A DNA stretch of 64,000 nucleotides from Clostridia bacterium (lineage in GTDB: Bacteria > Bacillota > Clostridia > Christensenellales > Borkfalkiaceae), in NCBI GenBank assembly GCA_017463205.1, contig JAFTPQ010000008.1:20896-84895 (forward strand), in the 5' to 3' direction. Position 1 is the stretch's first letter, and each line of letters starts with the position of its first letter. Positions 776-63,351 of the stretch are shown in pieces. Made by a program: the position numbers and the translations under genes. Below the pieces are notes generated by a model. The model saw only the letters and a program-made list of their open reading frames with translations, had not been told where the DNA came from and did not search any database.

Positions 776-828
776 TGTAAAAAATGCAAAAAAACCGTTA
801 GCTTTTTTTGCGCAAAAAGGAGTGCTTT

Positions 829-4807: not shown

Positions 4808-4836
4808 TTGACATTTGAAAGGAATTATAGTATAAT
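4808..4836 (+). promoter_or_regulatory. Sigma-A type promoter, TTGACA-N17-TATAAT
   Basis: Perfect -35 and -10 hexamers with a 17-nt spacer, 29 nt upstream of ATG 4865. Confidence 0.55.
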
Positions 4837-4864
4837 CATAAAGAACAGAAAAGGAGAAACGAGT

Positions 4865-5621: not shown

Positions 5622-6719
5622 ATGAAAAAACGAAAAGGGAACTCCCCGCAAGACAAGGCGGAATTTGTGTTTCAACGCATACCTGCCCCCTTGCTTTTGT
5701 GGTATAGGCAGCACAAACGGGATCTGCCGTGGCGAAAAAATCCCACGCCCTATCGCGTTTGGGTGTCGGAGATTATGTTGCAACAAACGCGTGTGGAGGC
5801 GGTGAAAGAATATTATCGCCGTTTTATGGAAGTCTTGCCGACGGTGGCGGATCTTGCGGCGTGTGAAGAAGAAAAACTGCTGAAATTGTGGGAAGGTTTG
5901 GGGTATTACAGCCGTGTACGCAATATGCAAAAAGCGGCGAAGATCATCGTGTCGGAATATGGCGGCGAACTTCCCAAAGATTTGTCGACGTTAAAAACTT
6001 TGCCGGGGATCGGCAGTTATACGGCGGGCGCAATCGCTTCGATCGCATACGGAATGCCTGTGGCGGCAGTGGACGGAAACGTGTTTCGGGTTGCGTCCCG
6101 TTTGACGGAAGATCCCACGCCTATCTCTGCGCCTGCCTACCGAACGTATTTGGAAAACGCCTTAACGGCGGTGTATCCGTCGGCGGGAAAGGATTGCGCC
6201 GATTTTACGCAGAGTTTGTTTGAATTGGGCGCAACGGTTTGCAAACCGCAAACGCCCGATTGTGATAGTTGTCCTGTAAAAGCGTTGTGTCACGCGTATC
6301 AAAGCGGTACGCAAAGCCAATATCCCGTGATGCCTGAAAAAAAAGCAAAACGGGTGGAAAACGTTTGTGTTTTTTTGATCGAAACGCCGCAAGGTTTTTG
6401 TATTCGACGTCGGGAAGAAGGCGTTTTAAAGGGAATGAACGAATTTCCTTCCCGTGTTTTAGAGGAAGGGGAAACGGCGGAAAATATTTTAAACGAATGG
6501 GGCATGTACGAGTTTACGCAAGTAAAACGTAAAAATTATACGCATATTTTCACCCATATCCGTTGGAATATGACGTGTGTTTGGATACGGACGGAAAGCG
6601 CGCCGTTTGATGCGTACACGTATGATGAAATTTTGGAAACGGTGTCCTTGCCCACGGCGTTTAAGCAGTGTATGGACATTTTAAAAGAGAGTGTGCAACA
6701 GTTGCGGTTGGAAATATAA
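5622..6719 (+). CDS. mutY: A/G-specific adenine DNA glycosylase MutY
   Basis: WYRQHKRDLPWR, VSEIMLQQTRV, the HhH-GPD motif LPGIGSYTAGAIASIA, a Cys cluster CKPQTPDCDSCPVKALC, and a NUDIX-like C-terminus. Confidence 0.9.
   Translation: MKKRKGNSPQDKAEFVFQRIPAPLLLWYRQHKRDLPWRKNPTPYRVWVSEIMLQQTRVEAVKEYYRRFMEVLPTVADLAACEEEKLLKLWEGLGYYSRVRNMQKAAKIIVSEYGGELPKDLSTLKTLPGIGSYTAGAIASIAYGMPVAAVDGNVFRVASRLTEDPTPISAPAYRTYLENALTAVYPSAGKDCADFTQSLFELGATVCKPQTPDCDSCPVKALCHAYQSGTQSQYPVMPEKKAKRVENVCVFLIETPQGFCIRRREEGVLKGMNEFPSRVLEEGETAENILNEWGMYEFTQVKRKNYTHIFTHIRWNMTCVWIRTESAPFDAYTYDEILETVSLPTAFKQCMDILKESVQQLRLEI
5671..5689 (-). repeat. Dispersed 19-nt motif, 19/19, reverse orientation, inside mutY
   Basis: The + strand reads TTCAACGCATACCTGCCCC, the exact reverse complement. 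It encodes FQRIPAP in the variable MutY N-terminus. Confidence 0.95.
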
Positions 6720-8336: not shown

Positions 8337-8355
8337 GGGGCAGGTATGCGTTGAA
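8337..8355 (+). repeat. Dispersed 19-nt motif, 19/19
   Basis: Exact copy ending 29 nt before the response-regulator start codon, followed by atat and AAAA. Confidence 0.95.
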
Positions 8356-8384: not shown

Positions 8385-9055
8385 ATGGCAAAAATTTTGG
8401 TTGTAGAAGACGATCGGGCGATCAATGGATTGATCTGTTTACGGCTTCGCGCCGAAGGACACGAGGTGACGGCTTGTTACGATGGCGAGGAGGCTCTTTC
8501 CGCGATGGAAACGGAGAGCTTTTCTATGATTATCAGCGATATTATGATGCCGAAAACGGACGGGTTTCAACTTGCCGAAAACGTGCGTTTGACGGATAAA
8601 AAAATTCCCATTTATTTATGACGGCAAAGGACGACAAGCCTTCTAAATTATACGCCTATCAATTGGGAGTAGACGATTACGTAGTGAAACCCTTCGATAT
8701 GGACGTGTTTATTTTAAAGGTGTCGGCGATGTTGCGCCGCGCGGGGATCGAGGCAAGCAAGCAACTGACGGTGGGAAATCTGTCGATGAACGCGGAAGAA
8801 CATACGGCGTATTTAAACGGGGAAGAATTATCCCTCACCGTGCGGGAATTCGATTTGCTGTTTAAATTGTTGTCCTATCCGAAAAAGACGTTTACGCGCT
8901 CGGCACTGATGGATGAATTTTGGGATTACGATTCGTCGGCAACGTCGCGGACGGTGGACGTATATATGGCGAAATTGCGCGAAAAGACGTCCGATTGCGA
9001 CGGGTTCGATATCGTCACGGTACACGGGCTTGGGTATAAGGCGGTGTTGAAATGA
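8385..9055 (+). pseudogene. OmpR-family response regulator interrupted by a 1-nt frameshift near 8611-8620
   Basis: ORF 8385-8621 is the receiver domain up to KKIPIYL*. ORF 8618-9055 continues with MTAKDD..., then the rest of the receiver and the winged-helix domain, in another frame. One extra T would restore IPIYFMTAKDD. Confidence 0.85.
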
Positions 9056-21982: not shown

Positions 21983-24319
21983 ATGGATTTAATTATCGTA
22001 GAGTCGCCTTCCAAGGCGAAAACCATCACCAAATATCTCAAGGGCAAATATCGGGTAGACGCTTCGGCGGGGCATATCCGCGATCTGCCCGTGCATACGC
22101 TTGGCGTGGACGTGAAAAACAATTTCGAGCCGAAGTACGTCAATTCCGAAGGGAAAGAAGACGTGATCAGACGTTTGGTAGACGCGACGAAAAAAGCCGA
22201 TCGCGTTTACCTCGCAACCGACCCCGACCGTGAAGGAGAAGCGATCGCGTGGCATTTGCAGACGGTGTTGGGGCTGGATACGGAAGGGGAAAACCGTATC
22301 GAATTTAACGAAGTTTCCCAACGCGCGATCGAAGCGGCGTTAAAAACGCCCCGTCAAATCAATTACAGCCTTGTAGACGCGCAACAGGCACGCCGCGTGT
22401 TAGACCGTTTGGTGGGGTATAAACTCTCGACGCTGTGAAATCATAAAATCGAAGATAAAAACGGCAACGGCAAGCGCACGCTTTCGGGCGGACGGGTGCA
22501 ATCGGTGGCGCTTCGCTTGGTGGTGGAGCGAGAACGGGAAATCACCTCGTTCGTGCCGCAAGAATATTGGAATTTGACGGCGGAATTGCAAGATCTGCCC
22601 AAACAATACGCGCCGTTTAAAGCATTGCTTGAAAAGAAGGGATCGAAAAAATACAAGCCGTCGTCTGCGGAAGAAACCGCGCAGGTGTTGGCGGCGTTGG
22701 AACAGGGGAAATTCGTTGTTTCCAAAGTGAAAAAAGCGATTGCAAAATCGCACGCGCCCGCGCCGTTCACCACAAGTTCGTTGCAACAAGACGCTTCGAC
22801 GAAGCTCGGATTCACCGCGCCGGAAACGATGACGCTTGCGCAACATTTGTACGAAGGTATCGAAACGGAAAACGGCGATCATATCGCCTTTATCACCTAT
22901 ATGCGTACCGACTCCGTTCGCGTATCGAAAGAAGCGCAGGAAAGGGCGTTAGAGCGTATCCGCGAAGTGTACGGTGCGGAATACGCCCCTGAAAAGCCCA
23001 ATTATTATGCGTCGAAGAAGGGTGCGCAGGACGCGCACGAAGCGATCCGTCCCAACGATCTTTCGATGACGCCCGAAAAGGCGAAAGGGTTGTTGGATAA
23101 AAAGCACTACGCTTTGTACAAATTGGTGTACGAGCGCTTCTTGGCGTCGCAAATGGCGGAAGCGAGATACAACAGTATGCAAATGGAAATCGACAACGGC
23201 GGCTACGTGTTTAAGGCGAGCGGAAAGGTGTTGCTGTTTGCAGGGTTTACGGCGGTATATCAAGACGCAAGCGCGCAGAAAAAAGAAGATGAAGACGAGA
23301 TCAGCAGTGAAAAGTTGTTGCCCGATTTAAACGAAGGGGACGCATTGGATCTGGTTTCGATGAAAAAGGAACAAAAATTCACCAAACCGCCCCTGCGGTA
23401 TACGGACGCGTCGCTGGTAAAAGCGATGGAAGAAAAGGGGATCGGCAGACCGTCTACGTATGCGACGATCATTTCCAAATTGACGCAAAAATACGTAAAA
23501 AAAGACGGAAAATATATGCTTCCCACGCCGATCGCTTACGACGTAGTGGATATGTTGGTGAAATGCTTTGTGGACGTAATGGACGTCGGGTTTACGGCAG
23601 GCATGGAAACCAAACTGGACGACATCGAAGAAGGGGACGTAGATTGGCGCAAAGTGATCGGGGATTTCTATCCCGGATTTGAAAAAAATTTGCGTCAGGC
23701 GTCGGCATACGGGGACGAATTGACGGAAACGACGTGCGGCAAGTGCGGTCATTTTATGATCCGCCGTATGGGGAAATTCGGCAAATATTTGGCTTGTTCC
23801 AACTATCCCGAATGTCACAATATTTTAAGTGAAAGCAAGGAGGAAATTTCTGCGGTGCGCTGTCCGAAATGCGGCGAAAATATGGTGGTGAAAAGTGGGA
23901 AATTCGGCAGATTTTTGGCGTGTCCCAGCTATCCCGACTGTAAATCGACGATGTCGATGCCGACGGATGAAGAACCCAAGCTGGCAGGGAAATGTCCCGA
24001 ATGCGGCGCGGCGATGACGGTGCGCAAATCGAAGAAAGGCAAAGTGTATTACAGCTGTTTGGGCTATCCCGATTGCAAATTTATGAGTTGGGACGTGCCG
24101 ACGGGGGATAAATGTCCCGAATGTCAAGGCGCTTTGGTACAAACGGCGCGCGGAAACGTGAAATGCAGCAACAAAGATTGTTCCTACCGTATCAAAACGG
24201 AAAAACCAAAAACGGACAAAGCAACGAAAAAGAGTAATCCGATCCCGATGGACGACGATTTTGCGCCGCCTCCCTTGATGGACGAACCGATGTATTTCGA
24301 TTTTAGCGACGAAGAATAA
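21983..24319 (+). pseudogene. topA: DNA topoisomerase I: one continuous frame with a single in-frame TGA at 22436-22438
   Basis: Track ORFs 21983-22438 and 22496-24319 are in the same frame (offset 513 nt). A TOPRIM N-terminus, GRVQSVALRLVVEREREI after the stop, and C-terminal zinc ribbons. The TGA aligns with the W of the conserved SPLLWKK segment. Confidence 0.9.
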
Positions 24320-24321
24320 CG

Positions 24322-25680
24322 ATGGGTATGGAAAAAGAAGTGTTGGTGATCGGCGGCGGTTTGGCGGGCAGTGAAGCGGCGTATTATCTGGCTTCGCGCG
24401 GCATCAAAACGACGTTGGTGGAAATGAAACCGAAAAAATTTACTCCCGCGCACGAAAGCGCTTGTTACGGCGAATTGGTCTGTTCCAATTCGCTGAAAAG
24501 CAACGACGCCTATGGCAATGCTTGCGGCTTGTTGAAAGAAGAAATGCGGCGGTTGGGTTCGATGATCATCGAGGCTGCGGACGCGACGAAAGTGCCTGCG
24601 GGCGCGGCTCTTGCCGTCGATCGGGAAAAATTTTCGGCGTATATTACGGAAAAATTGCAAAATTGTCCCAACCTCACCCTGCTTTCGGAGGAAGTGAAAA
24701 CTCTGCCCGAATTGGAAAAGGAAGGGGGCAGGTATGCGATCATCGCTACGGGGCCGTTGACGGCGGAGGATCTCAGCCGCGATATTTTGGAAAAAACGGG
24801 CGGCGGTTTACATTTTTACGACGCGTCTGCGCCTATCGTGTCCGCTGACAGCGTGGATATGCGTTATGCGTTCACGGGCGATCGTTATGGCAAAGGTACG
24901 GGCGATTATATCAACTGCCCGATGAACAAAGAAGAATATTATGCGTTTGTAGACGCCTTGCTTTCGGCGGAACGCACGCACTTGCACGATTTTGAAAAGG
25001 GGGAAATTTTCGAGGGGTGCATGCCGGTGGAAGTGATGGCTTCGCGCGGACGGGATACGTTGCGGTTTGGAACGTTAAAGCCCGTCGGGCTGGAATATGA
25101 AGACGGAAAACGGGCGTACGCAGTGTTACAGCTCCGCAAGGAAAACAACGAGGGAACGACGTATAATTTGGTGGGCTTTCAAACCAATTTGAAATTTCCC
25201 GAACAAAAACGAGTGTTTTCTATGATCCCTGCGTTGCAAAACGCCGAATTTTTACGCTATGGCGTGATGCATAGAAATACGTATATTCAATCGCCCGATG
25301 TTTTAAATCGCGATTTTTCGTTTAAGAATAATAGACGAATGTTTTTTGCGGGGCAGATCACGGGTGTGGAAGGGTATGTCGAAAGCGCGGCAAGCGGACT
25401 TTTGGCGGCGATCCATATAACGGACGAAATTTTAAAACGCCCCACCCATGTATTTGATGAACGCACAATGTGCGGCGCTTTGGAAACGCATATTTCCACG
25501 CCGACGAAAGATTTTCAGCCGATGAATGCCAATTTTGGGATTCTCACGCCGATGTCCGTGCGCATACGGGATAAAAAAGAACGTTATCGCGCCATGGCAG
25601 AACGTGCGTTGGCTGTCATTGACGAAATGAACGGACAAGGCGTTTTCGATCAAAGTCAAACGGCGAAGAAGGAAAAATAA
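24322..25680 (+). CDS. trmFO: Methylenetetrahydrofolate--tRNA-(uracil-5-)-methyltransferase TrmFO
   Basis: VIGGGLAGSEAAYYL FAD motif, CSNSLKS, FAGQITGVEGYVESAASG. Follows topA, as in Bacillus. Confidence 0.9.
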   Translation: MGMEKEVLVIGGGLAGSEAAYYLASRGIKTTLVEMKPKKFTPAHESACYGELVCSNSLKSNDAYGNACGLLKEEMRRLGSMIIEAADATKVPAGAALAVDREKFSAYITEKLQNCPNLTLLSEEVKTLPELEKEGGRYAIIATGPLTAEDLSRDILEKTGGGLHFYDASAPIVSADSVDMRYAFTGDRYGKGTGDYINCPMNKEEYYAFVDALLSAERTHLHDFEKGEIFEGCMPVEVMASRGRDTLRFGTLKPVGLEYEDGKRAYAVLQLRKENNEGTTYNLVGFQTNLKFPEQKRVFSMIPALQNAEFLRYGVMHRNTYIQSPDVLNRDFSFKNNRRMFFAGQITGVEGYVESAASGLLAAIHITDEILKRPTHVFDERTMCGALETHISTPTKDFQPMNANFGILTPMSVRIRDKKERYRAMAERALAVIDEMNGQGVFDQSQTAKKEK

Positions 25681-30029: not shown

Positions 30030-30048
30030 GGGGCAGGTATGCGTTGAA
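30030..30048 (+). repeat. Dispersed 19-nt motif, 19/19
   Basis: Exact copy 42 nt after the trxA stop. Its GGGGCAGG half is the 3' arm of the 13-bp hairpin at 30008-30037. Confidence 0.95.
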
Positions 30049-33133: not shown

Positions 33134-33152
33134 TAGGCAGGTATGCGTTGAG
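33134..33152 (+). repeat. Dispersed 19-nt motif, variant 16/19 (TAGGCAGGTATGCGTTGAG)
   Basis: Lies 17 nt after the stop at 33116, followed by at and A6. Confidence 0.8.
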
Positions 33153-33330: not shown

Positions 33331-35931
33331 ATGGATATGAGAAAGTTTACCGAAAAATCGGTGGCGGCATTACAGAAGTCGCAGGCGGTTGCGCGCGAAT
33401 ACGGCAATCAGGAAGTGAAACAAGCGCATTTGCTGTACGCTTTGGCGTCTGATCGCGACGGGTTGATCGCGCAGTTGTTGCAGGGCATGGAAAAAGACGT
33501 AACGGCAATTGAAAATGCGGCGTTGGAAAGTATTAAAAAATTGCCCAAGGTAAGCGGGGGAGAGCAATACGTTGGGCGGAGTTTGGCAGACGCATTGGAA
33601 GCGGCGGAAGCGCAGATGACGAAAATGGGAGATTTGTATTTGTCGGTAGAACATCTGTTTTTCGGTTTGACGGAAAAGGCGGACGGGGATTTGAAAGGGT
33701 TGTTCAAGCGGTTTTCTATCGAACAAAACGTGTTTATGCAAGCGTTGGCAGGGGTGCGCGGAAACCGTACGGTGCAAAGCGAAAACCCCGAAGATACTTA
33801 CGACGTATTGCATAAATACGGCACTGATTTGGTGGAAAAGGCAAGGGCGCAAAAAATCGATCCCGTCATCGGCAGAGATGAAGAGATACGAAACGTAGTG
33901 CGGATATTGTCGAGAAAGACGAAAAACAATCCTGTGTTGATCGGGGAAGCGGGCGTCGGGAAGACGGCGATCGCAGAAGGATTGGCGATTCGTATTATGC
34001 GCGGGGACGTACCCGATTCGTTAAAGGACAGAAAGGTGTTTTCGTTGGATATCGGCGCATTGATCGCGGGGGCGAAATTCCGCGGTGAATTTGAAGAACG
34101 TTTAAAAGCGGTGCTTGCCGAGGTGAAAAAGAGCGAAGGGGGCATAATTTTGTTCATTGATGAATTGCATACGATCGTCGGGGCGGGGAAAACGGACGGC
34201 GCGATGGACGCAGGTAATTTGTTAAAACCGATGTTGGCTCGCGGAGAGCTGCATTGTATCGGCGCGACGACGTTGGACGAATACCGTAAATATATCGAAA
34301 AAGATCCTGCGCTGGAACGGCGTTTTCAACCCGTGCTGGTGACAGAACCCACCGTCGAAGATACCATTTCCATTTTGCGTGGCTTGAAAGACCGCTATGA
34401 AGTGTATCACGGCGTAAAGATACAAGACAACGCGCTGATCGCGGCGGCCACGCTGTCTAACCGTTATATCACCGATCGTTTTTTGCCGGATAAAGCGATC
34501 GATTTGGTGGACGAAGCGTGCGCGATGATCAAAACGGAAATGCAATCGATGCCGTCGGAAATGGACGAGATCGCGCGGAAAATTATGCAACTTGAAATTG
34601 AGGAAAACGCCTTAAAAAAAGAAACGGACGCGTTATCGAAATCGCATTTGGAGGAAATTGAAAAAGAACTGTCCGTTCTTCGCGCGGAATATTCGGAAAT
34701 GAAAGCCAAATGGGAGAACGAGAAAAACGCCATCGGAGAATCGCAAAAATTGCGCGAGGAGTTGGAAACGGCAAACGCACAACTTGAAAAGGCGCAACGG
34801 GAATACGATTTGGAAACGGCGTCCAAATTGAAATACGGCAAAATCCCCGATCTGATCAAGCGTATTGAAGCGTGTGAAAAACAAGAAACGACGGGGGCAG
34901 GTATGCGTTCAACGGAAAATTCATTGTTGCGCGATCGGGTGACGGAAGAGGAAATTTCTCGGATCGTAGCCCGTTGGACGGGAATACCCGTTTCCAAATT
35001 GATGGAGGGCGAACGCGAAAAATTGTTGCGTTTGGACGAAACGTTGCACGCGCGCGTAATCGGGCAAGACGAAGCCGTGCAAGCGGTGGCGGACGCCATA
35101 TTACGTTCTCGCGCGGGGATCGCAGATCCCAATCGGCCGATCGGTTCGTTTCTGTTTTTAGGCCCGACGGGGGTAGGGAAAACGGAGCTTGCCAAAACGC
35201 TGGCTCGTTTGTTGTTCGACGACGAAAAAAATATGGTGCGGATCGATATGAGCGAATATATGGAAAAATATTCCGTTTCCCGTTTGATCGGCGCGCCTCC
35301 GGGATACGTTGGTTATGACGAAGGCGGACAGTTGACGGAAGCGGTGCGCAGAAAACCGTACAGCGTTGTGCTGTTCGATGAAGTGGAAAAGGCGCATCCC
35401 GACGTGTTCAACGTGCTGTTGCAGGTGTTGGACGACGGCAGGATCACCGACGGGCAGGGCAGGACGGTCGATTTTAAAAACACCGTCATCATTCTAACTT
35501 CCAATTTGGGTTCTACGACCATTTTAGAGGGAATCGAATACGATGGGAGTTTGTCGGAAGAAGCGAAAGAGGAAGTAAATCGTTTATTGAAAGCCTCTTT
35601 CCGTCCGGAATTTTTAAACCGCTTGGACGAAACGGTGTTTTTTACGCCGCTGACGAAGCCGCAAGTTCATCAAATCGTGCGGTTGTTGGCGGAAGGTTTG
35701 ATCAAGCGTTTGGAAGAAAAACAGTTGTATCTGACGTTGACGGATGCCGCGGTAGAATTGATCGTGGAAAAGGGATACGATCCTGTTTACGGGGCGCGGC
35801 CGTTAAAACGGTTTATTCAGCACAGTTTGGAAACGATGTTGGCAAAAAGCATTTTGGCGGGCAATTTTACAGCCGGCGACAGGTTGACGGTGGACGCGCG
35901 GCAGGGCGAATTGTCGGTGAAAAAAGCATAA
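33331..35931 (+). CDS. clpB: ATP-dependent chaperone ClpB
   Basis: Clp N domain, two AAA+ modules ([30 protein letters not shown]), and a middle coiled coil. Confidence 0.95.
34894..34912 (+). repeat. Dispersed 19-nt motif, 18/19 (TGA changed to TCA), in frame inside clpB
   Basis: acgGGGGCAGGTATGCGTTCAa encodes TGAGMRS in the ClpB linker before [11 protein letters not shown]. Confidence 0.9.
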
Positions 35932-36100: not shown

Positions 36101-37183
36101 ATGAAGATCATACACACGGGCGACGTGCATTTGGGTTCTACGATGAAAAATTTGCCGCCCGAAAAGGCGAAATTGCGGCAGGCGGAATTGATGGATACGT
36201 TTGCACAACTTGCCGTCTATGCAAAAAACAACGGAGTTTCCGCCGTGATCATCGCAGGGGATCTGTTTGATGAAAATAACCTGTTGCGGCGATATAAGCA
36301 AGACGTGTTCGCTGTAATAAAGGACGCCGCGCCCGTGGGATTTTTTTACGTTTCGGGCAATCATGACGACGAATTTGATTACGAAGACGAACTGCCGCCC
36401 AATTTATTTTTGTTTTCCAAAAGTCGGGGCTGGCAAAGTTACGATTTTCCCGAAAATATCACGCTGACGGGCATGGACAGTAAATTTATGCGCGCGGAAA
36501 CGCTTGCCGCATTGTCGTTGGATAAAACGCGGTTTAATATCGTGGTTTTGCACGGCGATATCGCAGGCGGTAAAACGAGTTTTGAAACAATTCCCCTCAC
36601 GGCGTTGCAAAATAAGTACGTCGATTATTTGGCGTTGGGGCATATCCATAAGCCGATGGCGGCGGCGAAACCTTTAGACGGACGGGGGATCTACCGTTAT
36701 TGCGGTTGTTTGGAAGGCAGAGGGTTTGACGAATGCGGTCAGCGGGGATTTTTCCTGTTGGATATCGAAAATGGGCGGTTGGTTCGCGAACAGTTTATTT
36801 CCATCGCCAAGCGAACGGTGGTGGAAGCGCATGCGGATATTTCCGATTGCGGCAGTTATTACGACGTGGAAAAAACGGTGGCGGCGGTATTAGGGCAGAT
36901 CCCGACGGGCAGTATCGTAAAATTGGTGCTTTGCGGGCGTTGCGTTGCGGGATTGCGCAAAGAATTATCCTTGTTGGAAATGCGTTTCGGACAGCAATTT
37001 TTTCATATTCGGGCGGAGGACGAAACGAAAACGTTTATCGATTATCGCGCCTACGAACATGATCACACCGCGCGCGGAGAATTTGTCCGCGAAGTGGGCA
37101 GGCGTGAAATGTCGGAAGAATTGCGCGCCGAAATTTTAGACGTGGGGTTAAAAGCTCTGGCAGGGGAGGAGATCGATTTATGA
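36101..37183 (+). CDS. SbcD/Mre11-like metallophosphoesterase (YhaO-like DNA repair exonuclease)
   Basis: MKIIHTGDVHLG, GDLFD, SGNHD, GHIH motifs. Overlaps the downstream ATPase gene (ATGA). Confidence 0.8.
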   Translation: MKIIHTGDVHLGSTMKNLPPEKAKLRQAELMDTFAQLAVYAKNNGVSAVIIAGDLFDENNLLRRYKQDVFAVIKDAAPVGFFYVSGNHDDEFDYEDELPPNLFLFSKSRGWQSYDFPENITLTGMDSKFMRAETLAALSLDKTRFNIVVLHGDIAGGKTSFETIPLTALQNKYVDYLALGHIHKPMAAAKPLDGRGIYRYCGCLEGRGFDECGQRGFFLLDIENGRLVREQFISIAKRTVVEAHADISDCGSYYDVEKTVAAVLGQIPTGSIVKLVLCGRCVAGLRKELSLLEMRFGQQFFHIRAEDETKTFIDYRAYEHDHTARGEFVREVGRREMSEELRAEILDVGLKALAGEEIDL

Positions 37184-39423
37184 AATTGTTATCCTGTTAT
37201 ATTGCCGGGTTTGGGAAATTTGTCAAACGGCAAATTCCATTTGACGGCAACCCTGTCGTGATCAAAGAGGACAATGGCTGGGGAAAAACGACGCTTGCCG
37301 ATTTCATTAAATGTATGTTATACGGCATGGAAAACAGCAGAAGCCGCGCTTTGGAAACAAACGAACGAAAAAAATACGAACCGTGGCAAGGCGGCGTATT
37401 CGGCGGTTCGCTTACGTTTTTATACGCAGGACGGAAATACCGCATCGAGCGGACGTTTGGCAAAACGGCGAGTATGGATACGGCGCGGCTGTTTGACGAA
37501 AACGAGATGCAATCGTACGCGTTTGGCGATAAAGCGGAGCATTTGGGCGAGGCGTTGTTTGGCGTCGATCGCGACAGTTATCAGCGCAACGTGTATGTTC
37601 CGCAAGGGGAGATCCCGACGGGGAATTTGCCCGACGATATGAAAAACCGCTTGCTTGCGTTGCTTGGCGGCAACGGGCAGGGCGGCGGTTCGGAAGTGGC
37701 GTTCGAGCGGCTGGAAACGGCAGAACGGGCGTTGCGCGCAAAGCGAAAACCCGCCAAAGGGAAGTTGGACGCGATCGACGAGCGGTTGCAAGAAATTTCA
37801 CGGGAAAAAGCAAATTGCGAACAGTGTCTTGCACAAGCGCGTTCGTTGCGCGCGGATATGCAACGCAAAGAGGAAGAAATCGGCTTTTACAATCAACGTT
37901 TGGAAGGTTTGTCGGCGGCAATCGAAAAGCTCAGCCGTCAAAACGAATGGCAGGCTCGGCAAGACGCCTATCGTCAAGCGCAAACGCAACTGCGAGGGAA
38001 CAACGCCACGCTTGGCGAGTTGCAGGCTTTCTTTGGCGACGTTGCGCCTGCTTCCGTCAACGTGGACGGCTTGCAAACGGCGGTTGGAGAATTTTATTCC
38101 TTGAAAGGCGCGCTGGCGGATACCGAACGGGAATTATCGCGCGCGGAAGACGTTTTGCGTGAAAAAAAGAACTTGGAAACGCAATTTTCCGCCTGTCAAA
38201 AAGCGAAGAAAACGTACGATCTGTTTATGGCAGGAAAAGGGGAAAGGACAGGGGCAGGTATGCGTTCACCGTCTGAAAAGCGAGCAAAAGTCGGCGGCAT
38301 AAAAGGCGTGTTTTGGTTTGTTTTTTTGCTGATCGCGGTTTTGGGCGGCGGACTTGTGAAAACGCAACCCGTTTTGGGCGGTATCGCATTGACGATCGGG
38401 GCAGTCGGCATATTGACGATGACGGTTATGTTGCTTCGCGGAAGAAAACGCAATGCCAAACGGTCGAATAAAGAAGAAACTGCGACGGAAGAAGCTTTAA
38501 AAGGTCTTGCGGAAACAGAAAAAGAATTGGCGGAGATCAGCCGTCGTTTGTCGGCGTTCCCTTCCGACGCCGAACAGATTTGTCAACGCTTGACCGCGCA
38601 AAAAACGCAACAAAAGCAGCGTTTGGACAGCGTGGAAAAGGGGATCGCCCGTTTTTTACAAAAATTTGCATTTCGGGAAATATACGATTATCGGGTGGCA
38701 TTGTCCACGTTAAAAGAAAATATTGCCTCTTACGCGCGGCTCACCCACTCCGTAGCGGAGCTGCAAACGCAGGTAAACGCTTGGGCGGACGGCTTGCAGG
38801 GGCAGGACGTTGCGCCGCAAGAGAGCGCTTTGGGGGATATTTCGGCACTGAAAAACGAAAAGGCGCAGATGGAGCGCGCAAAAGAAAGTTCGGTTGCCGA
38901 ACACGCTCGGTTGGCGACGAAGGCAGAACAGTTGGAAGAAGCGGCGGACACGTCGGGTTTGGACGGGGAGGCGGACGCGCTAAACCACGAAAAAGAACGT
39001 TTGGAAAGGCGATTGTACGCAATCAAGGCGGCGAAAGAAATATTGCTTCGCGCGGAAGAAAATATAGCGTCTCGGTATTTAGAACCGGTGGGGTTGCGTT
39101 GTCGGGCATATTTGAAAATGTTGCAAGGCGAAACGGGCGCAACGTTACGTTTTTCCGCCGACGGCGCGCCGTTCATTGAAGAAAACGGAGGGACGCATGA
39201 AGTGGATTATTACAGCGTCGGCTCGAAAGAATTGATCGGTTTTTGCACGCGTATCGCATTGGCGGAAACGATGTTTACACGTGAAACGCCTGTATTGATT
39301 TTAGACGATCCGTTTGTGAATTTGGACGATGAAAAAACGGAAAAAGCCAAACGGCTTGTCAAAGAATTGTCGAAAAAATATCAAATCGTATATTTTACTT
39401 GCAAAAACGAACGGCGCTTGTGA
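37180..39423 (+). CDS. SMC/SbcC-like AAA ATPase (YhaN-like) with an internal TM hairpin
   Basis: N-terminal Walker A DNGWGKTT, long coiled coils, and a C-terminal LILDDPFVNLDD Walker B. Hydrophobic segment at 38305-38436. Confidence 0.75.
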   Translation: MKLLSCYIAGFGKFVKRQIPFDGNPVVIKEDNGWGKTTLADFIKCMLYGMENSRSRALETNERKKYEPWQGGVFGGSLTFLYAGRKYRIERTFGKTASMDTARLFDENEMQSYAFGDKAEHLGEALFGVDRDSYQRNVYVPQGEIPTGNLPDDMKNRLLALLGGNGQGGGSEVAFERLETAERALRAKRKPAKGKLDAIDERLQEISREKANCEQCLAQARSLRADMQRKEEEIGFYNQRLEGLSAAIEKLSRQNEWQARQDAYRQAQTQLRGNNATLGELQAFFGDVAPASVNVDGLQTAVGEFYSLKGALADTERELSRAEDVLREKKNLETQFSACQKAKKTYDLFMAGKGERTGAGMRSPSEKRAKVGGIKGVFWFVFLLIAVLGGGLVKTQPVLGGIALTIGAVGILTMTVMLLRGRKRNAKRSNKEETATEEALKGLAETEKELAEISRRLSAFPSDAEQICQRLTAQKTQQKQRLDSVEKGIARFLQKFAFREIYDYRVALSTLKENIASYARLTHSVAELQTQVNAWADGLQGQDVAPQESALGDISALKNEKAQMERAKESSVAEHARLATKAEQLEEAADTSGLDGEADALNHEKERLERRLYAIKAAKEILLRAEENIASRYLEPVGLRCRAYLKMLQGETGATLRFSADGAPFIEENGGTHEVDYYSVGSKELIGFCTRIALAETMFTRETPVLILDDPFVNLDDEKTEKAKRLVKELSKKYQIVYFTCKNERRL
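38251..38269 (+). repeat. Dispersed 19-nt motif, 17/19 (TGA changed to TCA), in frame inside the yhaN-like gene
   Basis: acaGGGGCAGGTATGCGTTCAc again encodes TGAGMRS. It matches the clpB copy at 20 of 21 nt. Confidence 0.9.
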
Positions 39424-43605: not shown

Positions 43606-43624
43606 TACCCAGGTATGCGTTGAA
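43606..43624 (+). repeat. Dispersed 19-nt motif, variant 15/19 (TACCCAGGTATGCGTTGAA)
   Basis: The 3' 15 nt are exact. Followed by taag and AAAA, and then the bidirectional terminator. Confidence 0.75.
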
Positions 43625-48537: not shown

Positions 48538-49266
48538 ATGTTAAAAATAGAAAATTTGACGAAGCGATATGGGGAGAAAAGCGCGGTAGATAACGTTACG
48601 TTGCATATTCGCGCAGGGGAAATTTACGGATTTATCGGGCATAACGGTGCAGGAAAAACCACGACGTTGAAGGCGTGTTGCGGCATTTTGCAATTTGAAG
48701 AAGGGGAAATTTTTATCGACGGCGCGTCTGTGCGAAAAGAACCGCTTGTTTGCAAACAAAAAATTGCGTACATTCCCGATAATCCCGATTTGTACGCCTT
48801 TATGACGGGGATACAGTATTTGAATTTCGTGGCGGACGTATTTAAAGTGCCGTCGGCGGAGCGTTCGGCACGCATTAAGAAATATGCCGACGCCTTTGAA
48901 TTGACGTTTGCTTTGGCGCAACCCATTTCCACCTATTCTCACGGAATGAAACAAAAATTAGCGGTAATTTCCGCTTGGATACACGCGCCGAAGCTTATTT
49001 TAATGGACGAACCGTTTGTGGGGCTCGATCCCAAGGCGGCGCACACGTTGAAAGAAATGATGCGGGAAGTTTGCGACAACGGCGGCGCAATTTTCTTTTC
49101 CACGCACGTATTGGAAGTGGCGGAAAAATTATGCGATAAAGTGGCGATCATCAAAGACGGAAAATTGATAAAAGAGGGTACCATGGACGAGGTGAAAGGG
49201 GATTCCACCCTCGAAAACGTCTTTTTGGAATTGGTGGAAACGCCCTCCGACGTCGCAAAGGAGTGA
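48538..49266 (+). CDS. ABC transporter ATP-binding protein
   Basis: GHNGAGKTT, YSHGMKQKLAVISA, LMDEPFVGLDP. Confidence 0.85.
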   Translation: MLKIENLTKRYGEKSAVDNVTLHIRAGEIYGFIGHNGAGKTTTLKACCGILQFEEGEIFIDGASVRKEPLVCKQKIAYIPDNPDLYAFMTGIQYLNFVADVFKVPSAERSARIKKYADAFELTFALAQPISTYSHGMKQKLAVISAWIHAPKLILMDEPFVGLDPKAAHTLKEMMREVCDNGGAIFFSTHVLEVAEKLCDKVAIIKDGKLIKEGTMDEVKGDSTLENVFLELVETPSDVAKE

Positions 49267-50867
49267 GTATGCTGAAAACGTTGTTGAAAAAAGAACTGTT
49301 GGCGATTTTGGCGTTTTTCACGATAGGAAAAAACGGAAAACGCCGTTCCGCAGGTGTGATGGCAGGGTTTGCGCTGTTGATGTTGTATGCGTTCGGCGCA
49401 ATGGTTTTTATGTTTTGGGAAATGAGCAAAATGCTGTGCGCGCCGTTGGTCACAACGGGGCAAGCGTGGATATATTTTTCCGTAATGGGGTTGATGGCAA
49501 CGTCGTTGGGGGTGATCGGCGGCATTTTTATGGCAAAAAGCAAATTATACGAGGCGAAAGATAACGATTTGCTGTTGTCGATGCCGATTTCCGCGTGGAA
49601 ATTGTTGGCGGTGCGTACAATCGGCTTGTATGCGTTCACCTTTGTATTTGAAGGATTGGTGTTTTTGCCTGCCGTTGTGCAATATTTTACGGTAGTCGGC
49701 GCGCAGTGGCAAGCCGTTATCGGATGCGTCGTTGTCACTCTATTGATGCCGTTTTTGGCATTGGCGGTTTGTTGTCTGCTCGGTTTCGTTATGGCTTGGA
49801 TGCTGGGGAAATTGCCTTATAAAAATTTGTTTGCGATCCTTGGATTTTTAGCGTTTATGATCGTCTATTTTCTGTTATACAGCAAAATATACGACGCTTT
49901 AAATTACGTAATTATCAATGGGGAAGCGGTGGGCGCAATGATGCAAACGGCGCTGTTCCCCTTCGCGCAACTTGGCAAGGCGGCGATTGGAAACGGCGTT
50001 TCGCTCCTTTGGTTTTTGTTGGTGTTTGTGGGAGCGTTCGCCGTGGTGTACGGCTTGTTGTCCGTCACGTATTTGCGTATCGTGACGGCGAAAAAAGGTG
50101 AACGTTACGCCAAATATAAAGCAACGGAGCACAAGGTGTCTTCTCCTCGAAAGACTTTGTTGAAACGTGAGTTTTTGCGTTTGTTCAAAAGCCCCGGCTA
50201 TTTTTTGAACGCGTCTATGGGTACGTTTATGACTCTGTTGGTCGTCATTATGGCAGTGATACAGGGGGATGTGTTTGGAATGACGGCGGAAACGTTGCAG
50301 ACGAGCGGTTTCATCAAAATCGCGTCGATGATCCTTCCGCTTGCGCTGTGTTTTTTGGCATCTTCCAATACGTTGACGGCAGTATCCGTGTCCTTGGAAG
50401 GGGAAACGTTGTGGCAGTTACGTTCGTTGCCCGTAAAAACACAAGACGTGTTAAATGCAAAACTTTTGTTGCATTTTATCATGACGGCGGTTCCCGTCGC
50501 TTTGTGCGGTTGTGGAATGGGAATCGTGTTGAAACTTGCTTGGTATCACGTTGTATTTGCGGTATTGACGGGAATTTTGGCGTCGGCTTTTTTTGCGGAA
50601 ATGGGCTTGATGATCAATTTAAAATTCCCCAATTTGCATTGGACAAACGAAATGGTTGCCGTGAAACAAAGTCTGTCTGCCGTTTTCGCGATGTTTGGCG
50701 GCTGGGGCGTATCGTTATTGCCGCTCGGCGGATATTTCCTCTTTGGAAAATATATGCCCGCGTGGGGGTACGTCGCCCTTTGGCTGGGGATATTCGCATT
50801 GGCAACGACGGTGTTGTGGCTGTGCATAAAAAAATGGGGAACTTTGTTGTTTGAAAGTTTGTCATAA
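49263..50867 (+). CDS. Polytopic membrane protein, putative ABC exporter permease partner
   Basis: A 534-aa protein with many TM segments. Overlaps the ATPase gene stop. Confidence 0.6.
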   Translation: MSMLKTLLKKELLAILAFFTIGKNGKRRSAGVMAGFALLMLYAFGAMVFMFWEMSKMLCAPLVTTGQAWIYFSVMGLMATSLGVIGGIFMAKSKLYEAKDNDLLLSMPISAWKLLAVRTIGLYAFTFVFEGLVFLPAVVQYFTVVGAQWQAVIGCVVVTLLMPFLALAVCCLLGFVMAWMLGKLPYKNLFAILGFLAFMIVYFLLYSKIYDALNYVIINGEAVGAMMQTALFPFAQLGKAAIGNGVSLLWFLLVFVGAFAVVYGLLSVTYLRIVTAKKGERYAKYKATEHKVSSPRKTLLKREFLRLFKSPGYFLNASMGTFMTLLVVIMAVIQGDVFGMTAETLQTSGFIKIASMILPLALCFLASSNTLTAVSVSLEGETLWQLRSLPVKTQDVLNAKLLLHFIMTAVPVALCGCGMGIVLKLAWYHVVFAVLTGILASAFFAEMGLMINLKFPNLHWTNEMVAVKQSLSAVFAMFGGWGVSLLPLGGYFLFGKYMPAWGYVALWLGIFALATTVLWLCIKKWGTLLFESLS

Positions 50868-50879: not shown

Positions 50880-50898
50880 GGGGCAGGTATGCGTTGAA
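50880..50898 (+). repeat. Dispersed 19-nt motif, 19/19
   Basis: Begins 12 nt after the stop at 50867. GGCAGG (50882-50887) pairs with CCTGCC (50907-50912), followed by a T-rich run, so it looks like a terminator. Confidence 0.95.
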
Positions 50899-56750: not shown

Positions 56751-59075
56751 ATGAAAAGGATCATACCCGAATATTCCTTTACGGAAGAACAACTGAATAC
56801 GATTGCCCTTCTCGCTAAAGAATCGGGGCTGACGGAACAGATTACGCGTATTTTGTATGCGCGTGGGATCGATGACGTGCAAAAAATTCATCGGTTTATG
56901 CATCCGTCGGAGAAGAATTTTCTGTCGCCCTATCTTATGCGCGGCATGCAAGAAGCCGTGGAAATGATTACGCGGGCGCGGGACGAAGGAATGACGGTGG
57001 CGGTGTTTGGCGATTATGACGCCGACGGCGTTTGCGCTTCCGCCATTATGTTTCACGCCTTACGCGATTTTGGGATCGACGCTCACGTATACGTGCCCGA
57101 ACGCGCAGACGGTTATGGGTTGTCCATTGAAATGATCGACCGTATTTTCGAGGAGTGCAATCCCGAATTGTTTATCACGGTTGACTGTGGTATTTCTTGC
57201 GCGAAAGAAGCGCAATATATTTATGAGTTGGGTTCGGACGTGATCGTCACCGACCATCACGAATTGCCGGAAGTTTTGCCCGATTGCGTTATCATCAATC
57301 CCAAATTGAAAGACGATTATCCCTACGACAACCTTTGCGGTGCGGGGGTGGCGTTTAAAGTGGCGTGCGCGCTGATCGGAAAAGACGCCTATCAATATCT
57401 CGATTTTGCAACGTTGGCGACGGTTGCGGACAGTGTGCCGTTGTTGGGCGAAAACCGTGATATCGTAACGGAAGGGTTAAAAATTTTCAATTCGCATATG
57501 CGATCTTGTTTTTCGGCACTGATCGGAAAAAATTACGAAGCGGTAACGGCGCAGACGTTGGCGTTTACGGTTGCTCCTCGTGTAAATGCGGCGGGCAGAA
57601 TGGGTGACGCGCAAGCGGCGTTCCGTCTGTTTACAGCGGAAAATGAAAGCGAAATTTATGATTTGGCAACCAAACTTTGCCTGTATAACACCGAACGCCA
57701 AAAATGCTGTGAAGAATTATACGTTTCCGCAAAGAAGAAATTGACGGAAAAGGGTGCGTACGGCAATGTGATTATGTTGTCGGACGAAACGTGGAACACG
57801 GGCTTCATCGGCATAGTGGCGGCGCGGATTTCGGAAGAATACAATCGTCCAACGTTGCTATTCGTGCACAATGGCGATATGTTGAAGGGGAGCGCCAGAA
57901 GTATCGAAAATATCAATATTTTTACAATGCTGAAAAATTGTTCGCAGTACATCGAAGAATTCGGCGGTCACGCGCAAGCGGCGGGGATCAATATACGTTT
58001 TGAAAATTTCGACGTATTAGAACGCGCGTTAAACGAGGAGATCGCCCGTGCGTATACAGGTGCGGATTTTGAACAGGCAATTCCCGTCAGTGAGGAGATC
58101 GACGCGCCTTTTTCGGAAAAATTTGCACGCGAACTGATGGCGATGGAACCTTACGGCGTTGGACACCGCCGTCCCTTGTTTTCCATTTCGGCAGGCGCGT
58201 GTGCGGTGAAACCCGTCAAACCGATGTCCCAGCATTTATCGGTGCGCAGCGATTATATCGATTTGATCTATTTTTCGGGCGCAAGACATTTAAAAATCAT
58301 CGAAAGCGACGTTAAAAAGCAGTTTATTTTTGAAATCAACGTGTCGCATTACCGCGGCAGAGAATATATAAAAGGTCAAGTACGCGATCTGTTGTATGAC
58401 GGGCGTACGGGCAAAGGCGCAGCAGACCGCATTTTTGCCAATTCGGTGTTGCGCGCCGGCAGAGAGGATATCGCGCAAGAGCGCACGGCGCTTTCCACGT
58501 CGGAAATCGTCGAACTGATCGAACGGAAACGCCAAGAATGTCCTTACGGATTGTGTTTGATCGCTTCCGATCGCCGCACGTTACGTTTTTACGAGGGCTT
58601 GGAAGAATTCGGTTGCGATCTGTTTCATCTTTCCTCACGAGACGTATCCAATGCACTGATCGTATCGCCTGCGGCAGATGCCGATCTTTCGGGGTTTCGA
58701 GATTTTATATTTTTGGATACTCCGTCCGATTTCCATATTGCGGCATTGGAAAACAAATCGGTGTATTACAACCGTGATATATGCGGTTATAAAATGTTTG
58801 AAGCGCTGGACGTTACGCGCGAGGGACTGTTGGAAATTTTTGCCGCGCTTCGTCGCGAAGTCAACAGTTTGATGGGACAAACGGCGGAAGAATTGGCGAT
58901 CTCCTGCGACGGGCTTGGTTTTGATAAGCGAGAATTTATGTTCGCTTTAAACGTGTTTGAAGAATTGGGCTTGGTGTCGTTTGGTGACGGACATTTAACC
59001 GTATATCGCGGGGTGAAAGCAGAATTGGGAGATTCGGCATTGTATCGCAAGGTATGCGCGTTACAAAAAATTTAA
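56751..59075 (+). CDS. recJ: Single-stranded-DNA-specific exonuclease RecJ
   Basis: DHH motifs (VFGDYDADGV, DCG, VTDHH) and DHHA1 (GGHAQAAG). Confidence 0.9.
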   Translation: MKRIIPEYSFTEEQLNTIALLAKESGLTEQITRILYARGIDDVQKIHRFMHPSEKNFLSPYLMRGMQEAVEMITRARDEGMTVAVFGDYDADGVCASAIMFHALRDFGIDAHVYVPERADGYGLSIEMIDRIFEECNPELFITVDCGISCAKEAQYIYELGSDVIVTDHHELPEVLPDCVIINPKLKDDYPYDNLCGAGVAFKVACALIGKDAYQYLDFATLATVADSVPLLGENRDIVTEGLKIFNSHMRSCFSALIGKNYEAVTAQTLAFTVAPRVNAAGRMGDAQAAFRLFTAENESEIYDLATKLCLYNTERQKCCEELYVSAKKKLTEKGAYGNVIMLSDETWNTGFIGIVAARISEEYNRPTLLFVHNGDMLKGSARSIENINIFTMLKNCSQYIEEFGGHAQAAGINIRFENFDVLERALNEEIARAYTGADFEQAIPVSEEIDAPFSEKFARELMAMEPYGVGHRRPLFSISAGACAVKPVKPMSQHLSVRSDYIDLIYFSGARHLKIIESDVKKQFIFEINVSHYRGREYIKGQVRDLLYDGRTGKGAADRIFANSVLRAGREDIAQERTALSTSEIVELIERKRQECPYGLCLIASDRRTLRFYEGLEEFGCDLFHLSSRDVSNALIVSPAADADLSGFRDFIFLDTPSDFHIAALENKSVYYNRDICGYKMFEALDVTREGLLEIFAALRREVNSLMGQTAEELAISCDGLGFDKREFMFALNVFEELGLVSFGDGHLTVYRGVKAELGDSALYRKVCALQKI

Positions 59076-61298: not shown

Positions 61299-61919
61299 AT
61301 GCAGATCATTACAATATTTCCGCGTGGGTTCGGCGCAAACACGTATATTTTGACGGAAGACGGAGAAAATGCGTTGGTGATCGATCCCGCCGATACGCGG
61401 ATCGCGGATGAATTGAAAAAGCGCGGTTTGAAATGCGCATACGTTTTATTAACGCACTGTCATTTCGATCACGTCGGCGGCGTGGAAGTTTTGCAGGAAC
61501 AGGGCGCGAAAGTGGTGTGTTCCGCGGAAGAAAAAACATTGGTCGGGACAAGCGCGGCGCTGTTTGCATTGGCGGGAATGCCGCCTGTGGAATATACGGT
61601 GAACAAAACGTTGACGGACGAAGAGGAATGTTTTTTGTGCGGCATACAGTTGAAAATGTTATTGACGCCGGGGCATACGAAAGGGAGTTGTTGCTATCTC
61701 ATTACGGAAAAGGACGGGGGCAGGTATTTGTTCACGGGCGATACACTGTTTGCCGACAGTATGGGCAGGACAGATTTTCCGACGGGGGATTTGGAAGCGA
61801 TGCGCAAGAGTTTAAAACGCCTCGCCGCGTTGGATGATATGCCTGTTTATCCCGGTCATAACGAAGAGACGACGATCGAGCGGGAGCGCACCTACAATCC
61901 TTTTGTTCTTGATGCGTAA
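61299..61919 (+). CDS. MBL-fold metallo-hydrolase
   Basis: LLTHCHFDHVGG metal-binding motif and TPGHTKGS. Confidence 0.85.
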   Translation: MQIITIFPRGFGANTYILTEDGENALVIDPADTRIADELKKRGLKCAYVLLTHCHFDHVGGVEVLQEQGAKVVCSAEEKTLVGTSAALFALAGMPPVEYTVNKTLTDEEECFLCGIQLKMLLTPGHTKGSCCYLITEKDGGRYLFTGDTLFADSMGRTDFPTGDLEAMRKSLKRLAALDDMPVYPGHNEETTIERERTYNPFVLDA

Positions 61920-61953
61920 AAAAATGCAAAATCACAGGCAAAATAGGGAAGTT

Positions 61954-63351
61954 ATGTTGACAACCGATTGTAAATTTTTGGAAAATGAATTAATGGATAT
62001 TGTGCGGTTGTTTCGCCGCCGATCCGATTTCATCACGCACTCTTTCACCTATGAAGAGGGCGTTTTTTCCAACACTTTCACGGTGGACGGAAAGGAATAT
62101 TTTTTCAAAGACGGGGGGCAGGTGTGCGACGAATTGGAATTTAAACGGTTCGAGCGTCGTTTTGCCAAACTGCGTTTATACGAAATTTTAAGCGAATTAT
62201 ATCAAGAAAAAATGCCTTGGGGGGCATTGACGGGGATCCGCCCGACGAAATTGGCGTATATGGAATTGGAAAAAGGTCGCAATTTCCGCGATTTATTCCA
62301 AAAAATGCAGGTGCGTGAAGATAATATTCAATTGGTGGCGGAAATTTTAAAAACGCAAGAGGAGATTTACGAAAAGAAAGACGGCAACACCGACTTGTTT
62401 GTATCCATTCCGTTTTGCCCCACGAAATGCGCCTATTGCTCGTTTATTACCGCGCCGATTGAAAAGACGCGGCATTTTCTGCCGCAATATTTAACGTGTT
62501 TGGAAAAAGAATTGTCTGCGGCAGGCGACTGCGTGGGGAATTTGCGCAGCGTCTATATTGGCGGCGGCACGCCGTTTGCCTTGGATACGCCCGATTTGGA
62601 AAGAGTTTTAAAAGGGATCGCGCCACTGCGTCAAACCTATGCGCCGAATTGCGAATACACGGTGGAGGCAGGGCGGCCGGACGTGTTTACGGAAGAAAAA
62701 TTACGGCTTTTGAAGGAATACGGTGTGACGAGAATTTGCATCAATCCGCAAACGTTTTCAGACGAAACGTTGCAAAAGATCTGCAGAAAACATACGGTTG
62801 CGGATATTTACAAGGCTTTTGAACTGTCGGAAAAATATAATTTTATCATCAACGTCGATCTGATCGCGGGTCTGACGGATGAAACGCCCGACGTTTTTGA
62901 AAAAAGCGTTGAAAAAGCGGTGGCAACGGGTGTGGACAATATCACGGTGCATTGTTTGTCGTTAAAATCGGGCGCAAAGCTGAAAGAAGATATGTTGAAA
63001 GAGGAAAACGTATATTTGGAAAACGATTTCATCTCGTACATGGTGGCGTCTTCCCGTCAAATTTTAAGTCAAAACGGATATTTGCCTTATTATATGTACC
63101 GCCAAAAATATCAGGTGGGAAACAACGAAAACGTGGGCTGGACAAAGCCGAACAAAGCGTGCGTATACAACGTGGATATTATGGAAGAAACGGCGGACAA
63201 TCTTGCTGTGGGTGCAAACGCCGTGTCCAAACGGGTATATACAGATCAAGGCTTGATCACGCGCCTTGCTTCGCAAAAAGATTTAAAAACGTACATCGAC
63301 GGCGTAGACGTCACCATAGAAAAGCGCAGAAAATTTTTTGAAAATCCATAA
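61954..63351 (+). CDS. Radical SAM coproporphyrinogen-dehydrogenase-like protein (HemZ/HemN-like); start could be 61924
   Basis: IPFCPTKCAYCSF radical SAM motif, YIGGGTP, and a HemN-type C-terminus. Confidence 0.75.
   Translation: MLTTDCKFLENELMDIVRLFRRRSDFITHSFTYEEGVFSNTFTVDGKEYFFKDGGQVCDELEFKRFERRFAKLRLYEILSELYQEKMPWGALTGIRPTKLAYMELEKGRNFRDLFQKMQVREDNIQLVAEILKTQEEIYEKKDGNTDLFVSIPFCPTKCAYCSFITAPIEKTRHFLPQYLTCLEKELSAAGDCVGNLRSVYIGGGTPFALDTPDLERVLKGIAPLRQTYAPNCEYTVEAGRPDVFTEEKLRLLKEYGVTRICINPQTFSDETLQKICRKHTVADIYKAFELSEKYNFIINVDLIAGLTDETPDVFEKSVEKAVATGVDNITVHCLSLKSGAKLKEDMLKEENVYLENDFISYMVASSRQILSQNGYLPYYMYRQKYQVGNNENVGWTKPNKACVYNVDIMEETADNLAVGANAVSKRVYTDQGLITRLASQKDLKTYIDGVDVTIEKRRKFFENP

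Follow-up and report, generated by a model that had tools for sequence, protein, structure and literature searches.

A 64-kb stretch of DNA from a Clostridia bacterium (contig JAFTPQ010000008.1; hereafter the window) carries, inside its clpB gene, a short sequence that recurs in the genomes of its relatives. That segment is an old copy, conserved at its orthologous site, of a DNA word that occurs throughout the lineage, has the core GGGGCAGGTATGCGTTGA and a length of 18-27 nt, and is kept at the nucleotide level; of this we are confident. The explanation that we judge best overall, and hold with about even confidence, is that of an old clade-wide word whose copies originate by substitution and recombination and which acts as a DNA-level recognition signal, most like DNA uptake sequences. 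That the word actually functions as a DNA uptake signal is a tentative proposal.

The copy in clpB and its conservation

The clpB open reading frame (ORF; 33331..35931, + strand) encodes a ClpB of 866 aa (amino acids), in which positions 34891-34911 read acg ggg gca ggt atg cgt tca, that is TGAGMRS. The initial annotation had taken this segment for a copy of a dispersed motif, and re-reading of the sequence with translation of the ORF bears this out: it is a genuine copy, and its flanks, GAAACGACG and ACG, fit the extended consensus of the word. The linker was also said to be 7 residues longer than that of E. coli ClpB. Its length is indeed so in comparison with the E. coli protein (4d2q), but the extra 7 residues do not coincide with the 7 encoded by the motif: in the HMMER alignment the gap is split, 2 residues before GAGMR and 5 after, and GAGMR itself pairs with E. 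coli GKTMR. Nor does the motif stand directly before LLRD, as had been implied, the two being separated by the five residues STENS.

GAGMR, or something close to it, stands in the linker of most of 120 ClpB homologs of 81-86% identity; in a set of remoter ClpBs (AAASAKDS) GAGMR is missing and the linker is 5 residues shorter. At the DNA level, the word occupies the orthologous site in 10 of 10 ingroup clpB sequences as GGG GCA GGT AYG CGT TCA, decayed in some, and one further metagenome-assembled genome (MAG) has GAG GCA GGT ATG CGT CGA. Outgroup clpB genes, those of S. pullicola and S. pullistercoris included, show an unrelated GCG GCG GCT TCC GCC at the word site. Apart from the same strain (P0001, P0121), no relative closer than ~86% ClpB identity was found. 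As all the ingroup clpB genes examined have the copy at the orthologous site, both as DNA and as protein, it predates the divergence of these species.

Two other coding copies have a similar depth. YhaN-like homologs are only 42-61% identical, yet most have GAG[TM]R at the same site; in the sister-species locus L273 the yhaN-like site reads GAG GCA GGT GTA AAG CGA, half-decayed and without change in length. The RqcH copy, SPFDGAGMRSRLE, also encodes GAGMRS and is present in 120 of the 120 best homologs, with no motif-less outgroup among them. Judging by these alignments, the copies in clpB, the yhaN-like gene and the RqcH gene are old and shared; none of them arose recently in this genome.

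Within clpB, pairwise identity at third codon positions among the 10 sequences is 0.93 in the word's six codons, against 0.49 in the next 90 codons, which are nevertheless 88% identical as protein; none of 85 six-codon segments of clpB reaches the third-position identity of the word (0/85). The encoded M and R, by contrast with these positions, vary (T, L, K, S, P). The other reading frames of the word encode wholly different peptides, GGRYAL and GQVCV[ED], and it follows that the conserved object is the DNA rather than GAGMRS. By this measure the word is, in our assessment, constrained at the nucleotide level in clpB.

Copies in the window and across the lineage

Copies in the window were counted with the 18-mer GGGGCAGGTATGCGTT[G/C]A, S at position 17, with at most 2 mismatches allowed and the expectation taken from 100 shuffles. 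There are 10 matches in the 64 kb, 9 of them on the + strand, and 0 are expected. Five are exact TGA copies, all outside long ORFs, and two are TCA copies, both in frame 0 of ORFs. The density of exact TGA copies is about one per 13 kb (~0.08 per kb). Around these lies a halo of 7 copies with 2-4 mismatches (0.36 expected). Outside full copies, enrichment of sub-words and half-words (7-mers such as GGGCAGG) reaches only ~2-fold. The second TCA copy resides in a 747-aa ORF (37180..39423) for a YhaN-like protein with AAA_23/SMC_N similarity, where 38248-38268 reads aca ggg gca ggt atg cgt tca and again gives TGAGMRS.

Table 1. Exact and degenerate copies of the word in the window
Feature	Positions	Strand	Context
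Exact TGA copy, intergenic	757..774	+	34 nt upstream of rimM (808..1329)
Exact TGA copy	5672..5689	-	Sole exact TGA copy on the - strand; between ORF 4736..5614 and mutY
Exact TGA copy, intergenic	8337..8354	+	31 nt upstream of response-regulator gene (8385..)
15/18 copy, GGGGCAGGGTTGCGTTAA	9827..9844	+	In histidine kinase gene; part of the degenerate halo
16/18 copy, GGGGCAGGTATGCGATCA	24725..24742	+	Inside trmFO, frame 1 (GGRYAII)
Exact TGA copy	30030..30047	+	Thioredoxin-rubrerythrin convergent spacer; 5' part pairs with CCTGCCCC at ~30007-30014, strong hairpin, z = -4.8
16/18 copy, TAGGCAGGTATGCGTTGA	33134..33151	+	180 nt upstream of clpB; followed by terminator-like hairpin 33173-33202
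In-frame clpB copy with flanks	34885..34914	+	18-nt core 34894-34911, GGGGCAGGTATGCGTTCA, encodes GAGMRS; M-domain/NBD2 linker
In-frame TCA copy, GAGMRS	38251..38268	+	YhaN-like AAA_23 ATPase, linker before transmembrane segment
Degenerate copy, 14/18, TACCCAGGTATGCGTTGA	43606..43623	+	Convergent spacer
Exact TGA copy	50880..50897	+	13 nt past stop of ORF 49263..50867; GGCAGGT pairs with downstream ACCTGCC, then T-run; terminator-like, z = -4.0
Degenerate genic copy, GGGGCAGGTATTTGTTCA	61717..61734	+	In ORF 61433..61837
15/18 copy, GGGGCAGGTGTGCGACGA	62115..62132	+	In radical-SAM gene 61834..63351

The lineage was surveyed in GTDB species-representative genomes for exact 18-mers, so that the counts of TGA and TCA forms are lower bounds: the exact TGA form occurs in more than 112 stretches and the exact TCA form in more than 114. 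Their hosts are nearly all Candidatus Scatosoma or other Clostridia MAGs, of different species and from animal and human guts; outside the Scatosoma group the best ClpB relatives, among the matches listed, are 69% identical. Over 143 copies, each of the 18 core positions is at least 96% identical and the extended consensus is AAAnGAnG-core-A. The flank part is weak, and is common to genic and non-genic copies. No match to the word was found in phage and plasmid collections, and it occurs in 1 of 2.9 million viral contigs. A literature search with either strand of the word returned no publication.

Of 146 copies placed with a simple ORF model, 82 fall within ORFs; every frame and either orientation is represented, and 32 of the 82 are antisense to the gene. 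Hosts include genes for an AddA-like helicase (GGRYAL), an ABC ATPase (GQVCVDG), AroC (chorismate synthase), LigA, RqcH/NFACT and EcfA; in ClpB, YhaN-like proteins, RqcH and LigA the copies fall in variable loops or linkers. Non-genic copies often follow a co-oriented stop codon by 8-27 nt, and their distance to the next start codon is highly variable. About 12 of 48 non-genic exact copies (~25%) have an inverted partner, as in the perfect 33-nt palindrome GGGGCAGGTATGCGT-TCA-ACGCATACCTGCCCC; 13 + 6 near-perfect 33-nt palindromes were counted. Some copies show strong hairpins followed by U-runs, and the window copies at 50880 and 30030 are hairpin arms. Copies favour the G-rich strand by 87:18 (83%, 4.8:1), where composition alone (a G9 C2 word and a GC skew of 0.15) predicts ~7:1.

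Other genomes of the clade have about one exact copy per 80-150 kb (~0.01 per kb), or one per 12-17 kb (0.06-0.08 per kb) when up to 2 mismatches are allowed, and apparently tens to a few hundred copies each. The exact-copy density of the window is 6-10 times that of these genomes. Between 23000 and 46000 it holds 5-6 copies, where the syntenic loci L273 and L274, of sister species with 86% identical ClpB, have only the clpB copy. The gap in density between the window and the clade genomes indicates that copy number is dynamic between species.

Several further observations concern the word or its surroundings. A cobalamin riboswitch aptamer (RF00174, 69-80 bits) carries the exact word in its variable peripheral region in three MAGs (L094 5918-6004 on the - strand, L113 and L144), and the word is followed there by a ~28-nt stretch that does not align to the RF00174 model. 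A double variant, GGGGCATGTCTGCG[T/A]TGA (G7T + A10C), occurs in four MAGs (L081, L126, L181, L187) and may represent another sub-family, or dialect, of the word. ATG and ACG forms do not define such dialects: a MAG with ACG in its clpB copy has ATG copies elsewhere (L198 vs L278/L323). Directly 3' of the yhaN-like copy, 38269-38277 reads CCGTCTGAA, which shares 9 of 10 bases with the core of the Neisseria DNA uptake sequence (DUS); we regard this as a chance likeness, there being no other sign of that word.

Two genes of the window are broken. A frameshift beside an A7 run at ~8597-8603, either a sequencing error or real, separates the receiver ORF (8385..8621) of an OmpR-type response regulator (8385-9055) from its Trans_reg_C ORF (8618..9055). 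In topA, an in-frame TGA at 22436-22438 (..DRLVGYKLSTL*NHKIEDK..) separates a Toprim ORF (21983..22438) from a Topoisom_bac ORF (22496..24319); a nonsense mutation, a fault of assembly or pseudogene status might each account for it, and E. coli TopA has a conserved Trp near this position. In L273, positions 3591-5424 hold a HindIII-like restriction enzyme and an N6/N4 methyltransferase where L274 has housekeeping genes (hslU, hisS).

A candidate recognition signal

The closest parallel that we find is with the DUS of Neisseriaceae and the uptake signal sequences (USS) of Pasteurellaceae. Like them, the word is lineage-specific, asymmetric and massively overrepresented, has a weaker flank consensus and is conserved in related species. 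USS and DUS originate through mutation with recombination and, in proteins, fall at positions of low conservation (PMC2817400), and their inverted pairs occur in terminators (PMC1852404). The word, too, is found in intergenic DNA and, in several frames, in coding DNA, there apparently at poorly conserved protein positions; its inverted pairs make terminator-like hairpins. It is likewise rare in phage and plasmid DNA, and one copy, in trmFO, shows no length difference from its ortholog. We propose that the word is a DNA-level recognition signal, most like the sequences by which naturally transformable bacteria take up DNA or recognise their own. Preferential uptake of conspecific DNA that bears the word would then renew it again and again, even at synonymous sites. 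The word is found wherever it is tolerated: in spacers, in the variable region of a riboswitch, and in variable loops and linkers in all six frames, the avoidance of an internal stop being the only constraint on it.

The window encodes ComM, DprA and RecJ, genes of transformation and recombination: a comM-like gene (Mg_chelatase/YifB) adjoins dprA at 19220-21909, followed by topA, trmFO and hslVU, and recJ lies at 56751..59075.

Several points weigh against this proposal. ComM and DprA are widespread in non-transformable bacteria. The host belongs to a Gram-positive-type Clostridia lineage, and Bacillota are not known to have sequence-specific DNA uptake; the literature search found nothing relevant on Scatosoma, or on uptake sequences in Clostridia/Firmicutes. 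The word has 18 invariant bases where DUS and USS have 9-12, more information than in any known uptake signal. Its orientation is skewed 87:18, whereas USS/DUS are about equally numerous in the two orientations, although with ~7:1 expected from composition this does not decide the matter. In species that bear the word the clpB linker has 2-5 codons more, and an indel could have accompanied the origin of that copy. Finally, the word is 10-100 times less dense than known uptake sequences, which reach 0.80-0.89 per kb in Haemophilus and Neisseria (PMC2817400).

Put in full, the proposal is that the word serves as an uptake or self-recognition signal of naturally transformable gut Clostridia, the first outside Proteobacteria and the longest known, written into linkers of ClpB, RqcH, YhaN-like proteins, LigA and AddA and even fusing neighbouring genes where its TGA was lost; in this form, too, it is tentative.

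The cyanobacterial HIP1 (palindrome GCGATCGC) is another lineage-wide word in coding and non-coding DNA that is kept at the nucleotide level. It differs in being an 8-bp palindrome of very high density, where the present word has 18 asymmetric nucleotides at low density.

The word could instead be the site of a lineage-specific DNA-binding protein, with a role in nucleoid organisation, segregation or the self-marking of a defence system, and with tens to hundreds of individually conserved sites. This would account for the conservation of orthologous positions over long divergence, synonymous positions included, and for the apparent number of copies per genome; sites inside genes are normal for parS, Noc-binding site (NBS) and matS types. 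Known sites of this kind are, however, palindromic and bound by dimers, and the word is asymmetric. No candidate protein was identified, and the degenerate halo, together with the differences in density between sister species, looks more like turnover than like a fixed set. We consider this reading rather unlikely.

A polar chromosome-processing signal, read on one strand and co-oriented with replication, would be either Chi-like (AddAB) or akin to the FtsK-orienting polar sequences (KOPS) and SpoIIIE recognition sequences (SRS). The word resembles these in being G-rich, in lying mostly on the G-rich, presumably leading, strand (83% of copies; 9/10 on the + strand in the window), in being tolerated inside genes, where Chi- and KOPS-type words are also found, and in recurring every several kb: about one per 6-17 kb, a density like those of E. 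coli Chi and KOPS. Its 5' half, GGGCAGGT, matches E. coli KOPS (GGGNAGGG) at 7 of 8 positions by inspection, and AddA-like and SbcCD/YhaN-like genes are present. The word is nonetheless more than twice as long, with 18 invariant positions against the 5-8 nt of known Chi and KOPS/SRS words, and its sites are individually conserved between species. Perfect inverted pairs are common, which gives one copy of each pair the wrong polarity; composition alone would produce at least as strong a skew (~7:1 expected, 4.8:1 observed); and sub-words such as GGGCAGG show only the ~2-fold enrichment given above. On balance such a signal is unlikely.

Origin of the copies and avoidance of the stop

The initial annotation took the pattern in clpB to fit the insertion of a short element, and our comparisons speak against a recent insertion of 21 nt. 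The matched stretch of clpB measures 198 or 189 nt in sequences with the word and 183 nt in most outgroups. Word-bearing linkers are thus 5 or 2 codons longer than motif-less ones, not 7; as the word and its flank cover 6-10 codons, more than this gain, the word overlies linker codons that already existed. YhaN-like homologs without the word are ~3 residues shorter at the site. In trmFO there is no difference in length: the alignment of the 16/18 copy of the window (GGRYAII) with the 13/18 site of L274 (GGMYLMI) is free of gaps. The copy at 30030 is absent from L273 and L274, as is the whole ~97-nt block that contains the copy at 33134. No clean insertion polymorphism was found against L273/L274 in trmFO or in the spacers of these two copies, spacers that are too diverged to define clean indels. 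From this sequence evidence a 21-nt insertion is not supported, and a small indel may have attended the birth of the clpB copy.

The halo of copies with 2-4 mismatches and the 2-fold enrichment of half-words would fit gradual gain and decay, and the strand bias comes close to the prediction from composition, which a mutational origin of the copies would lead one to expect. We infer that copies are made and kept by point substitution, together with homologous recombination or selection on DNA, and not by transposition of a 21-nt unit.

A mobile element of ~21 nt, inserted in clpB and the yhaN-like gene, after which selection turned TGA into TCA and reopened the frame, seems to us distinctly unlikely. 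It would draw on the greater length of word-bearing clpB (198 or 189 nt vs 183 nt) and YhaN-like sequences, on the exact identity of 18-19 nt amid unrelated flanks, and on the several exact intergenic copies of the window that are missing at the syntenic L273/L274 sites, as after a burst of copying. The word also shares with repetitive extragenic palindromic sequences and bacterial interspersed mosaic elements (REP/BIME), and with miniature inverted-repeat transposable elements (MITE), the character of a short dispersed repeat, with tens to hundreds of copies and some palindromic 33-nt intergenic forms. The length gaps, however, are of 2-5 codons, never 7, and smaller than the word with its flank; the two coding copies are of great age and lie at orthologous sites in many species; and the trmFO copy shows no indel and has its 13/18 counterpart in a sister species. 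A single unit of the word is neither palindromic nor self-complementary. It has no terminal repeats, target duplications or associated transposase, and no link to a RAYT was seen. More than half of its copies are inside genes (82/146 in ORFs), unlike REP or MITE, the strand ratio follows base composition, as for a mutational origin, and the word is absent from phages and plasmids.

What the initial annotation had said of the stop codon stands and can be generalised. The clpB (34894-34911) and yhaN-like (38251-38268) copies are both GGG GCA GGT ATG CGT TCA, with the same G-to-C change, and the canonical word, ending in TGA, carries a stop in frame 0 alone. Among 114 TCA copies in the lineage, 39 are in frame 0 of long ORFs: ~22 in the RqcH gene, the others in an EcfA1-EcfA2 linker, in LigA and elsewhere. 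A further 23 of the 114 are in frame 1, and ~13-15 form the centre of a palindrome, where TCA simply complements the TGA of the partner. Less often, frame-0 copies escape the stop by TTA or CGA; TCA and CGA are each one step from TGA and two steps from each other. Copies in frame 0 never keep TGA internally, and 4 of 122 exact copies seem to supply the gene's own stop, the ORF ending in ...GAGMR* (L151, L158, L165, L182). A frame-0 word would then either give the gene its stop or survive as a one-off variant, mostly TCA, of which the clpB, yhaN-like and RqcH copies are examples. Recoding of TGA as Trp was rejected: TGA is a normal stop here and ends 7 of 37 ORFs.

In L095, L327 and L372, EcfA1- and EcfA2-like ABC ATPase domains are joined in one ORF of 540-640 aa, with the word-encoded GAGMRS as the linker; in L095 and L327 another GAGM[RH] lies close to the C-terminus. 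This arrangement suggests that the ECF ATPase genes were fused through loss of the word's TGA.

An element acting on RNA or translation is quite improbable. It could be a AAAGGAGG-like flank 9 nt before ATG with a mini-ORF, ATG CGT TGA (M-R-stop), or the arm of a terminator serving mRNA stability, coupling or termination. The upstream consensus A-A-A-(G)-(G)-A-n-G indeed stands 9 nt before the ATG, many intergenic copies are 8-27 nt past a co-oriented stop and some are within terminator-like hairpins. But genic copies have the same flank consensus, 32 of 82 being antisense and others in frames 1 and 2, and the clpB copy is without RNA structure (fold z = -0.06). For a mini-ORF the spacer GGGGCAGGT would not have to be conserved exactly, the next start codon lies at widely differing distances, and no Rfam family reaches its gathering score across the whole window. 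The spacing does not fit a sigma-54 or other promoter. Neither a fragment of tRNA, tmRNA or signal recognition particle (SRP) RNA nor the 5' end of a group II intron fits the word.

That the GAGMRS peptide has a role of its own, as a flexible linker or a modification or cleavage motif, with the likeness in DNA secondary, is hardly credible: GAGMR is kept in ClpB, YhaN-like and RqcH linkers, and E. coli ClpB has GKTMR at the aligned position, but the same DNA word is equally common in the GGRYAL and GQVCV[ED] frames, antisense and in non-coding DNA, and in clpB conservation is seen at the synonymous third positions, residues M and R being variable.

The word is instead a clear case of non-coding constraint that shapes protein sequence, the same six codons (GAGMRS) being held in unrelated proteins by the DNA and the one change that is tolerated being that which abolishes the stop. 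It provides a sharp taxonomic marker for the binning of MAGs and for contamination checks, and a ligand with which its binding protein could be sought. If the word is the recognition signal that we propose, it would mark "self" DNA in widespread, uncultured gut Clostridia and would point to natural transformation, or to another form of DNA discrimination, in these bacteria.

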